A stretch of 64,000 nucleotides of DNA, taken from NCBI GenBank assembly GCA_965198945.1, contig CBDAQI010000013.1:1-64000 (forward strand), written 5' to 3'. This stretch comes from Thermodesulfobacteriota bacterium (lineage in GTDB: Bacteria; Desulfobacterota_D; UBA1144; Nemesobacterales; Mycalebacteriaceae). How positions within the stretch are numbered: the first letter of the stretch is position 1; each line of letters opens with the position of its first letter. The notes under the pieces are model-generated. The model was not told where the DNA came from, searched no databases, and was given only the letters and a program-made list of their open reading frames with translations. The translations under genes and the position numbers were made by a program. Shown here one piece after another: positions 31,923-32,428 of this stretch.

Positions 31923-32070
31923 TGGCGGTTGACTGACTCCGCGCCGTTGCGGGGTGATGCGCGGCCATAAACTAAGCGCTTGGCCTTGAACGGTTTTCTC
32001 TCCCGCATGTGGTTTGTTTCGGGAGTTATATACCAAATTAGACAAGACTCCGCTCAATCTGCACTCAATC

Positions 32071-32099
32071 TTGACACACTGCCCACAAGCGTGCAGACT
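32071..32099 (+). promoter_or_regulatory. Sigma70-type promoter candidate
   Basis: TTGACA-17 nt-CAGACT, preceded by CTCAATCT x2 at 11-bp spacing (32053, 32064). Confidence 0.45.
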
Positions 32100-32104
32100 T
32101 TCAA

Positions 32105-32428
32105 TCGCTAAACAAGCACAGAAACCCGCTTTGTCGGGTCTCTTGCCGAATAAAAGACCTTCGTTAAGACAACAGCTCCTGTTTGTTGAAGGGAATAGGC
32201 GGGAAGCCTGTCAAACCCCTTTGATGTGCTTGTTTAGCGAAGACCCGGCCCCCAAAAGCCGGAGTCGGGAGGCTGAAAGTAGTAGGCGGAACAACTTACA
32301 TTTGTTCCAACATAATTGATAAATTAAGTATGAGTCCCCGAGACTAATGAACTGTAACCCTTCGTTAGTTCTTCACTTCAGTAAACACCATCGGGGACTC
32401 TTTTCAATAAGTCCCTTTTTTCATACTT
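32105..32428 (+). ncRNA. Unidentified structured ncRNA candidate
   Basis: Perfect 16-bp inverted repeat closing a rod (32105-32240), further hairpins and a terminator-like end; no credible ORF. Confidence 0.5.

Follow-up and report, generated by a model that had tools for sequence, protein, structure and literature searches.

The window analysed here, a stretch of 64,000 nucleotides (nt) from a Thermodesulfobacteriota bacterium (assembly GCA_965198945.1, contig CBDAQI010000013.1, positions 1 to 64,000), carries near its middle an element whose features support a structured non-coding RNA, encoded on the + strand and preceded by a predicted promoter of its own. This RNA very probably belongs to an uncatalogued family of long-form RNAs of the sRNA-Xcc1 type (RF02221 in Rfam). 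The favoured reading, which is probable, takes in the whole region 32071-32421: it would be a self-contained transcription unit that yields RNA only, made up of a promoter, a structured RNA of about 150 nt, a spacer and a terminator-like hairpin, and its product would be an uncatalogued long form of the sRNA-Xcc1 kind.

Elements of this kind, about 110-160 nt long, are currently unlabelled intergenic DNA in annotation. Their description adds a well-supported structured RNA family, with strong covariation, promoter and gene context, to two poorly studied uncultured lineages, and ties that family to sRNA-Xcc1, which has been in Rfam since 2012 and whose mode of action is unsettled in the portions of the literature available to this analysis.

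Fold, covariation and distribution of the RNA

The strongly folded core of the element, 136 nt in length, is closed by a perfect 16-base-pair (bp) inverted repeat, in which TCGCTAAACAAGCACA at 32105-32120 is the reverse complement of 32225-32240; an earlier note on this DNA, made from the letters alone, had claimed this pairing, and it can be read directly. Folded as the + strand, positions 32095-32310 reach -83.1 kcal/mol, compared with -59.3 +/- 4.4 kcal/mol in 200 dinucleotide shuffles (z -5.4), none of which attains the native energy, and the - strand of the same region folds somewhat more weakly (z -4.4). The rod drawn in the earlier note is contained in the minimum free energy fold. That note had also assigned the RNA to the + strand, and the assignment holds because G-U pairs are frequent in the helices, notably in the outer stem and in the b-e helix described below, because the promoter is suitably placed, and because the covariance model matches one strand: model R1 gives 23 matches, the sole reverse-strand match among them scoring 10.5 bits. 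The other upstream and downstream features that had been noticed, namely the TTGACA-17-CAGACT promoter, the CTCAATCT repeats just upstream of it and two hairpins following the rod, are likewise present (Table 1).

A DNA search with the window element returned short matches to the core in the same genome and in related genomes, and the matched places have one layout in common: a promoter-like pair of boxes, a long stem specific to the copy, a conserved core and, usually, a ribosome-binding site followed by a gene. A covariance model seeded from three similar copies collected 52 matches and was rebuilt from them as model R2; the family alignment holds 52 copies in 51 distinct rows. The conserved core comprises GUCGGGUCU, the loop AAUAxAAGACC..GGGAAAUA and AGRCCCGRC, and the outer stem, P1, measures 12-20 bp, with a sequence that is different in every copy and a pairing that is kept.

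Across the 52 copies, the 36 pairs of P1 and of the three helices of the inner hairpin P3 (P3a, P3b and P3c) are formed in 95.1% of alignment cells as against 63.0% after shuffling, and sliding the partner by 1-3 columns lowers this pairing to 37-48%. Cells changed on both sides number 455 where 130 are expected, with every pair showing some. By helix, pairing amounts to 92.9% in P3a, 98.0% in P3b and 94.0% in P3c, with two-sided changes in every pair. One point tells against these counts, namely that the alignment behind them was fitted to the model's own structure and thereby favours it; P1 and P3 are nevertheless secure, because the effect is large and the stems are visibly different between copies. 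Aligning 11 copies with MAFFT and folding them with RNAalifold did not recover P1, because its variable arms cannot be aligned by sequence.

Not all of the inner helices drawn in the rod extend to the family. Those formed by UCUCUUGCC with GGCGGGA (P3a) and by CCUUC with GAAGG (P3b) are conserved, whereas the middle helix, UUUGUCGGG/CCUGUCAAA, is present in this copy and was rejected as a family feature: its pairing in 64.1% of cells hardly exceeds the 63.0% of shuffled columns and lies within the 62-65% that one-column slides give. A pairing of element b (GUCGGGUCU) with element c (AGACCCGAC; AGACCC(GAC)) was also set aside: it is good in the long subtype, but in the family as a whole it reaches 77.5% with no compensatory change, and P3b is preferred.

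Beyond P1 and P3, element b is complementary to element e, AGACCCGGC, which lies just outside P1, at nine of nine positions in the window. Family-wide, this b-e helix is paired in 97.8% of cells; four doubly changed cells fall in three of its pairs, and many one-sided changes of the U-G/U-A and G-C/G-U kind accompany them. It is the outer helix of the Rfam Xcc1 model, and the same bases are paired in the Rfam alignment. Two local structures compete for its strands. A hairpin of at least 4 bp between elements a and b is predicted in 50 of the 51 distinct copies (-6.8 kcal/mol in the window), and a hairpin termed P4, which excludes the b-e helix because it takes part of e, is predicted in 46 of 51. 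With mean predicted energies of -7.5 kcal/mol for a-b, -8.6 for P4 and -13.8 for b-e, the state with both local hairpins and the state with the b-e helix should lie near balance.

Model R2 recognises six diverged copies in the source genome (1.39 Mb, 95% complete), the window copy among them, and has matches in 33 of the 120 genomes of a phylum-level sample. Carriers are distributed over families as 5 of 5, 24 of 37, 2 of 5 and 1 of 33 genomes, and the other 39 genomes have none. When named genome contigs were scanned for a pattern, 17 loci emerged, of which the 11 matched by R1 all come from Nitrospirales/Nitrospira or Thermodesulfobacteriota metagenome-assembled genomes (MAGs); the other six, from Acidobacteria, Bryobacterales, Chlamydiales and Pseudomonadales MAGs and an uncultured bacterium, are without an R1 match and were treated as chance. 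Carriers hold one to seven copies per genome, with seven places in genome G018 and five each in G002 and G001, and some copies lie a few kb apart (G002:C1:37812-37953 and 40196-40309; G033:C6:24610-24723 and 26606-26718, on opposite strands). Such clustering suggests islands of these leader cassettes.

The surroundings of the copies were described with promoter, signal-peptide and lipobox calls that are simple heuristics of this analysis. A -35/-10 pair precedes 31 of the 52 copies; the distance from the end of its -10 box to the first base of P1 is 0-16 nt, in most cases 4-8 nt, and most of the remaining copies show, by eye, a clear -10 box at the same place. Since the promoter-like pair ends just before the first stem base, the RNA should begin at or near the base of P1, as judged from sequence. 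Behind 48 of the 52 copies an open reading frame (ORF) of 40 or more codons that has a Shine-Dalgarno sequence begins no farther than 300 nt away; 33 of the 52 have a signal-peptide-like ORF whose start lies within 60 nt, and 16 of these 33 carry a lipobox-like motif. Most copies are thus placed as 5' leaders of exported-protein genes. When 35 of the 48 cargo ORFs were compared with Pfam (short, cut-off and doubtful ones being excluded), 23 had no family and 12 had a match: outer membrane protein (OMP) beta-barrel (two), pilin N-methylation motif, PEGA, CARDB, ankyrin, DUF2085, GT25, GT8 (two, below the cut-off), a DNA methylase with HNH, and Nmad2. The OMP-like gene behind the source-genome copy at C1:39561-39702 (G000:C1:39300-39560, - strand) has a good signal peptide and a stop after about 31 codons; a longer frame resumes downstream of the stop, which points to a frameshift or an assembly slip.

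Relationship to sRNA-Xcc1

At Rfam gathering thresholds the whole window yields only three tRNAs and the signal recognition particle RNA, all of them elsewhere; no Rfam family reaches its threshold at the element, in keeping with the earlier note, which had recognised no tmRNA, RNase P or riboswitch signature. A relaxed search (E<=10, positions 31900-32520) leaves RF02221 as the sole + strand match to a bacterial RNA, at 22.4 bits compared with a gathering cut-off of 53 bits. The same model scores 27.8-35 bits on related loci and finds 30 places in 16 of 61 genomes of relatives at 24.1-46.3 bits, with none of the 61 genomes above the cut-off, and these places mostly coincide with R1 matches. 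The comparison also works in the other direction. Scanning viral contigs for the loop motif of Xcc1 yielded upwards of 100 loci, and 18 of the 20 tested are true Xcc1 RNAs scoring 53-78 bits; R2 matches 18 of 80 viral loci with the motif at 21-33 bits, aligning b, P3 and e and deleting P1. Because RF02221 and R2 match each other's members below threshold, the cores of the long form and of sRNA-Xcc1 are, on sequence and predicted structure, most likely homologous. The earlier suggestion of a new class of non-coding RNA goes too far, since the core has this reciprocal sub-threshold match.

The two forms share an outer helix of the type GUCGGG.. / ..CCCGRC followed by RCC, a first hairpin with the internal loop AAUAYAA / GGGRAAUAA, a promoter of their own and a position directly before a gene. 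In the window, the outer helix that RF02221 describes as GgCcGGggG / CccCCgGcC with an RCC tail is present, and the loop of its hairpin 1, AAUACAA / GGGGAAUAA, is represented by GAAUAAAAGACC ... GGGAAUAGG, which align to the model. In the position where sRNA-Xcc1 has its local hairpin 2, by contrast, the long form has the 3' arm of the 12-20-bp stem, which pairs with an arm located 5' of the entire core, and the Rfam alignments leave hairpin 2 poorly paired in long-form loci. The long form is therefore a pseudoknot, some 30-60 nt longer; its hosts are uncultured Thermodesulfobacteriota-labelled and Nitrospirales MAGs, and its cargo consists mostly of exported proteins and not of antirepressor-like genes or symE. 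The element is filed as a long variant of sRNA-Xcc1 and not as a member, because tests of two features that define RF02221, its score and its hairpin 2, came out negative.

In the available parts of the respective reports, sRNA-Xcc1 of Xanthomonas campestris is an RNA of 88 nt that runs at about 100 nt on northern blots (PMC2996969), and homologues stand upstream of symE in integron cassettes (bioRxiv 10.1101/2025.06.18.660453) and upstream of an ORF6N protein in an APSE phage (bioRxiv 10.1101/2020.03.17.996009). The accessible text of a study on Xylella (PMC12189769) gives seven sRNA-Xcc1 copies, which in one strain adjoin C4 and IsrK. Within the sections of this literature that were at hand, which do not include the original 2011 paper and the supplements, neither the long form nor a cis-antisense role is described.

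A possible role for the outer stem and the competing explanations

The 3' arm of P1 may be an antisense to the region where translation of the gene following the leader starts, with the 5' arm as a decoy; this is a serious candidate, to which we give slightly less than even confidence. The 5' arm would be built in to mask the antisense arm, which could then be freed either by processing at element b or within P1, or by refolding in which the a-b and P4 hairpins are exchanged for the b-e helix. The proposal is drawn from a correspondence between the stems and their own cargo. Over 40 copies, the predicted energy of the P1 3' arm with its own start region averages -9.91 kcal/mol, compared with -8.27 kcal/mol for the start regions of other copies (permutation p ~0.0002), and after removal of near-duplicates the values are -10.84 and -8.85 kcal/mol (n=23, p 0.0002). 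Words identical between the 5' arm and its own start region are likewise longer (5.50 vs 4.58 nt; p ~0.0002), and in the clear cases they measure 7-9 nt and lie between the Shine-Dalgarno sequence and the start codon. For the copy at G007:C17:614192-614307 the predicted duplex of arm and start region reaches -22.6 kcal/mol.

The same relation appears in true Xcc1 leaders of viral contigs, where the 27 nt over hairpin 2 pair with their own start region at -18.2 kcal/mol and with non-cognate ones at -11.2 kcal/mol; the cognate region is the best partner in 19 of 60 leaders and among the best four in 42 of 60 (permutation p ~0.0002). The gene behind these viral leaders presumably begins as an antirepressor-like gene, its N-termini having been recognised by eye. 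In the viral loci L079-L158, which come from prophage and phage contigs, the hairpin-2 region covaries with the start region at two places, over the Shine-Dalgarno sequence and further upstream. If true, the arrangement of decoy, antisense and target would give a testable mechanism for both the long form and sRNA-Xcc1, would explain why the outer stem varies, since P1 would track the start site of its cargo gene, and would mean that logic of the phage C4 type is used by chromosomal surface-protein genes.

C4 RNA, known from phages P1 and P7 (RF01695, RF03163), offers a comparison in its working logic, in that a structured RNA on the transcript of its target is complementary to the ribosome-binding region. 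In that system a1/b1 is a further, upstream copy of the target that is able to mask the antisense, as the title of the Rfam family reflects. The order a1/b1, C4, a2/b2 would have its counterpart here in the P1 5' arm, the P1 3' arm and the start region. According to the part of PMC5320573 that was available, RNase P releases C4 from a longer transcript, after which two loops of the RNA cover the ribosome-binding site of the target. The antisense proposed here differs in being a stem arm and not two hairpin loops. The C4 models have no match at E<=10 in 31900-32520, apart from a - strand match of c4-a1b1 there (12.9 bits, E=1.8), the only C4-related one, and none at E<=1 in 27 related loci. What is meant is an analogy and not an assignment to the family. 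A much bolder generalization, which must be called doubtful, would make the long-form Xcc1 RNAs, distributed over uncultured phyla before genes for exported proteins, three-part gates with decoy, antisense and target on one transcript: the b-e helix with the RCC tail would be a handle resembling a tRNA acceptor, RNase P, as with C4, or RNase III acting on P1 would remove the decoy arm, and the antisense would act on its own and on sister mRNAs. On this view sRNA-Xcc1 itself, to date described as a trans-acting sRNA linked to virulence, would be encoded in cis as an antisense to the gene that follows it, and orphans such as the window copy would be free regulators.

Several observations weigh against these readings. 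The predicted stability of P1 far exceeds that of the duplex of arm and start region, and a step that removes or opens the 5' arm is therefore needed. Under the strictest de-duplication (n=8) the cognate preference falls to p 0.039, and in the de-duplicated set the cognate start ranks 0-3 in only 10 of 23 copies, the effect being clear in about 40%. P1 and the b-e helix cross as a pseudoknot with only 1-2 nt between them, and by geometric reasoning, uncomputed, the two would be sterically awkward if both were fully formed. The window copy itself is followed by no ORF, and when the genome was searched for a target of its 5' arm, no start region matched over 12 nt or more; the longest matches measured 11-13 nt, with start-site context seen at none, and 11-mer matches of this kind are estimated to arise by chance at this genome size. 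Its -10 box (CAGACT) is poor, and it is because of this weak box that a generic sigma-70 scan did not call the promoter. Among public sequencing runs, the stretch is covered by two DNA-type contig sets of one study, and no RNA run is listed for it.

The conservation of the core nucleotides beside variable stems, together with two alternative pairings of similar energy, would equally suit a riboswitch-like leader, in which the P3 loop and junction bind a small molecule or a protein and thereby shift the balance between the a-b and P4 hairpins and the b-e helix, so controlling the downstream gene, with P1 as no more than a clamp. The copies are multiple and stand before genes for surface proteins, pilin, OMPs and glycosyltransferases, and multi-copy leaders before surface genes recall second-messenger riboswitches. 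A 5' leader with mutually exclusive pairings next to the start site also resembles translational riboswitches and RNA thermometers, although here the Shine-Dalgarno sequence lies mostly outside the conserved leader helices, and P4, which likewise leaves it free, is rarely terminator-like. We regard this explanation as unlikely: DNA methylases and Nmad2 are also among the cargo, and the genes that follow Xcc1 proper are antirepressor-like ones and symE, so that no common metabolite is suggested; c-di-GMP (cyclic di-GMP) is an improbable ligand in a genome without a GGDEF match; no Rfam riboswitch family matches at the element; and the tracking of the cargo start region by P1 is left unexplained. 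A switch that senses a ligand or protein would nonetheless be compatible with the antisense reading. More improbable is a passive 5' module, that is, a promoter-plus-leader cassette without switching, whose paired 5' end would protect from 5'-end-dependent decay or offer an RNase III site. It would account for a long near-perfect duplex standing where the RNA is expected to start, given the promoter-like pair just upstream in 31 of 52 copies, for the heterogeneous cargo and for a lineage-specific insertion at the window site; yet a stabiliser has no need of some 60 conserved core nucleotides, a compensated b-e helix and complementarity to the cognate start, and the cargo-less copies keep an intact structure at four of six sites in the source genome.

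An element acting as DNA, such as a miniature inverted-repeat transposable element (MITE), an integron attC-like site or another recombination site, is very improbable. An inverted repeat in several copies and the unit inserted at the window site would be expected of it, and the available part of bioRxiv 10.1101/2025.06.18.660453 places the related Xcc1 in integron cassettes. However, it is the interior that is conserved while the arms vary from copy to copy, the frequent G-U pairs of P1 and b-e pair only in + strand RNA, and the essentially one-strand matching of R1 has no place in such an account. The shared unit, moreover, extends from the promoter as far as the terminator (no search for terminal repeats or target-site duplications was made), and the DNA search of the genome matched only a 36-nt piece of the core of one other copy. 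Many genomic copies of MITE type had been named in the earlier note as what would undo its RNA candidate; there are several copies, yet these agree in their cores and diverge in their arms, which is the reverse of what a MITE would show. The two identities suggested in that note, a compact 6S-like RNA and an orphan retron msr/msd, have in their favour the rod-like fold, the long inverted repeat at its flanks and the G that follows the 5' arm, and they are the least credible of all. The 6S model RF00013 is unmatched in both the window and the genome, which, unlike with the single housekeeping copy of 6S, holds six diverged copies with variable stem and conserved core; no reverse-transcriptase-like ORF was found in 26000-38000 and no RVT_1 domain in the 95%-complete genome, and the other family members are mRNA leaders.

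The window copy, its parts and its surroundings

Table 1. Features of the window unit, with the R2 copies and the terminal elements of the source genome (positions without a prefix refer to the window)
Feature	Position	Strand	Remark
Two CTCAATCT direct repeats	32053-32060, 32064-32071	+	just upstream of, and touching, the -35 box
Promoter-like site TTGACA, 17 nt, CAGACT	32071-32076 (TTGACA), 32094-32099 (CAGACT)	+	ends 5 nt before the outer stem
P1 5' arm, 16 nt	32105-32120	+	proposed target-mimicking decoy; P1 covaries in 52 copies
Element a (ACCCG)	32124-32128	+	local pairing with CGGGU of element b possible
Element b (GUCGGGUCU)	32133-32141	+	5' strand of the Xcc1-type outer helix; complementary to e
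P3 hairpin	32142-32203	+	corresponds to hairpin 1 of RF02221
P3a CUUGCC/GGCGGG; P3b CCUUC/GAAGG	within 32142-32203	+	helices of P3
P3 conserved internal loop GAAUAAAAGA / AAUA	within 32142-32203	+	
P3c, optional distal hairpin	~32168-32187	+	in P3
Joining strand, P3 to P1 3' arm	32204-32224	+	longer than in most copies (alignment)
P1 3' arm, 16 nt	32225-32240	+	proposed antisense; occupies the place of Xcc1 hairpin 2
Element e (AGACCCGGC), then CCCC	32241-32249	+	3' strand of the b-e helix
P4 hairpin CCGGC...GCCGG	32245-32262	+	uses part of e; first hairpin after the rod (~32245-32262)
Second GUCGGG (b-like), overlapping Shine-Dalgarno-like GGGAGG	32264-32272 (GGGAGG 32267-32272)	+	
Small hairpin GGAACAA...UUGUUCC	32288-32308	+	in the spacer; earlier note's second following hairpin
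Terminal hairpin GAGUCCCC (32332-32339) / GGGGACUC (32393-32400)	32332-32421	+	likely 3' end, ~320-nt transcript
GGGACU/AGUCCC hairpin + U6	32394-32421	+	overlaps the terminal hairpin
R2 copies in the source genome	C13:32105-32253 (window), C10:63435-63550, C10:52161-52291, C1:39561-39702, C6:22042-22156, C1:169320-169442		
Terminal element, window	32332-32421	+	
Terminal element, second site	G000:C10:63307-63379	-	
Terminal element, third site	G000:C10:52433-52469	+	

No usable start codon follows the GGGAGG of the window copy, and in the source genome four of the six copies lack an ORF of at least 35 codons within 200 nt. The window copy is accordingly either a cassette relic or a free small RNA. 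At the syntenic site of five other genomes of the genus the leader occurs in none, and three of the five (G001, G003 and G005) have there a membrane-protein ORF of 81-89 codons. In the window, positions 31923-32010 hold a remnant of a small membrane-protein gene, with an ATG, three codons and then a stop, so that the leader unit seems to have replaced the 3' part of this gene. The unit is a lineage-specific insertion, because the leader is missing from the five other genomes and the ORF is intact in three of them and reduced to a four-codon remnant in the window.

An alignment of two copies shows similarity that sets in around the -35 box and fades just past the terminal hairpin; the shared unit therefore spans promoter to terminator. 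Three cargo-less leader units of the source genome, that of the window and the two on contig C10, end in a second conserved element, GAGUCCCC ... UAAUGAAC ... GUAAACA..AUCGGGGACUC with a run of U. This terminal element looks non-coding, because its reading frames differ between copies, and a DNA search of 20 related genomes did not find it. In the window it overlaps the alternative GGGACU/AGUCCC+U6 hairpin, in a manner resembling an attenuator. A direct repeat of 8 nt, TTCTGAAT, which may be trivial, occurs at 32431-32438 and 32458-32465, in the interval that separates the terminal hairpin from the convergent gene.

Elsewhere in the window, positions 25839-27848 of the + strand hold an ORF of 669 codons whose C-terminal half we take, by motif recognition, to be uroporphyrinogen decarboxylase (HemE)-like. 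It carries an N-terminal extension of about 330 residues and adjoins hemH- and hemY-like genes, and it may be a fused enzyme of the heme pathway.

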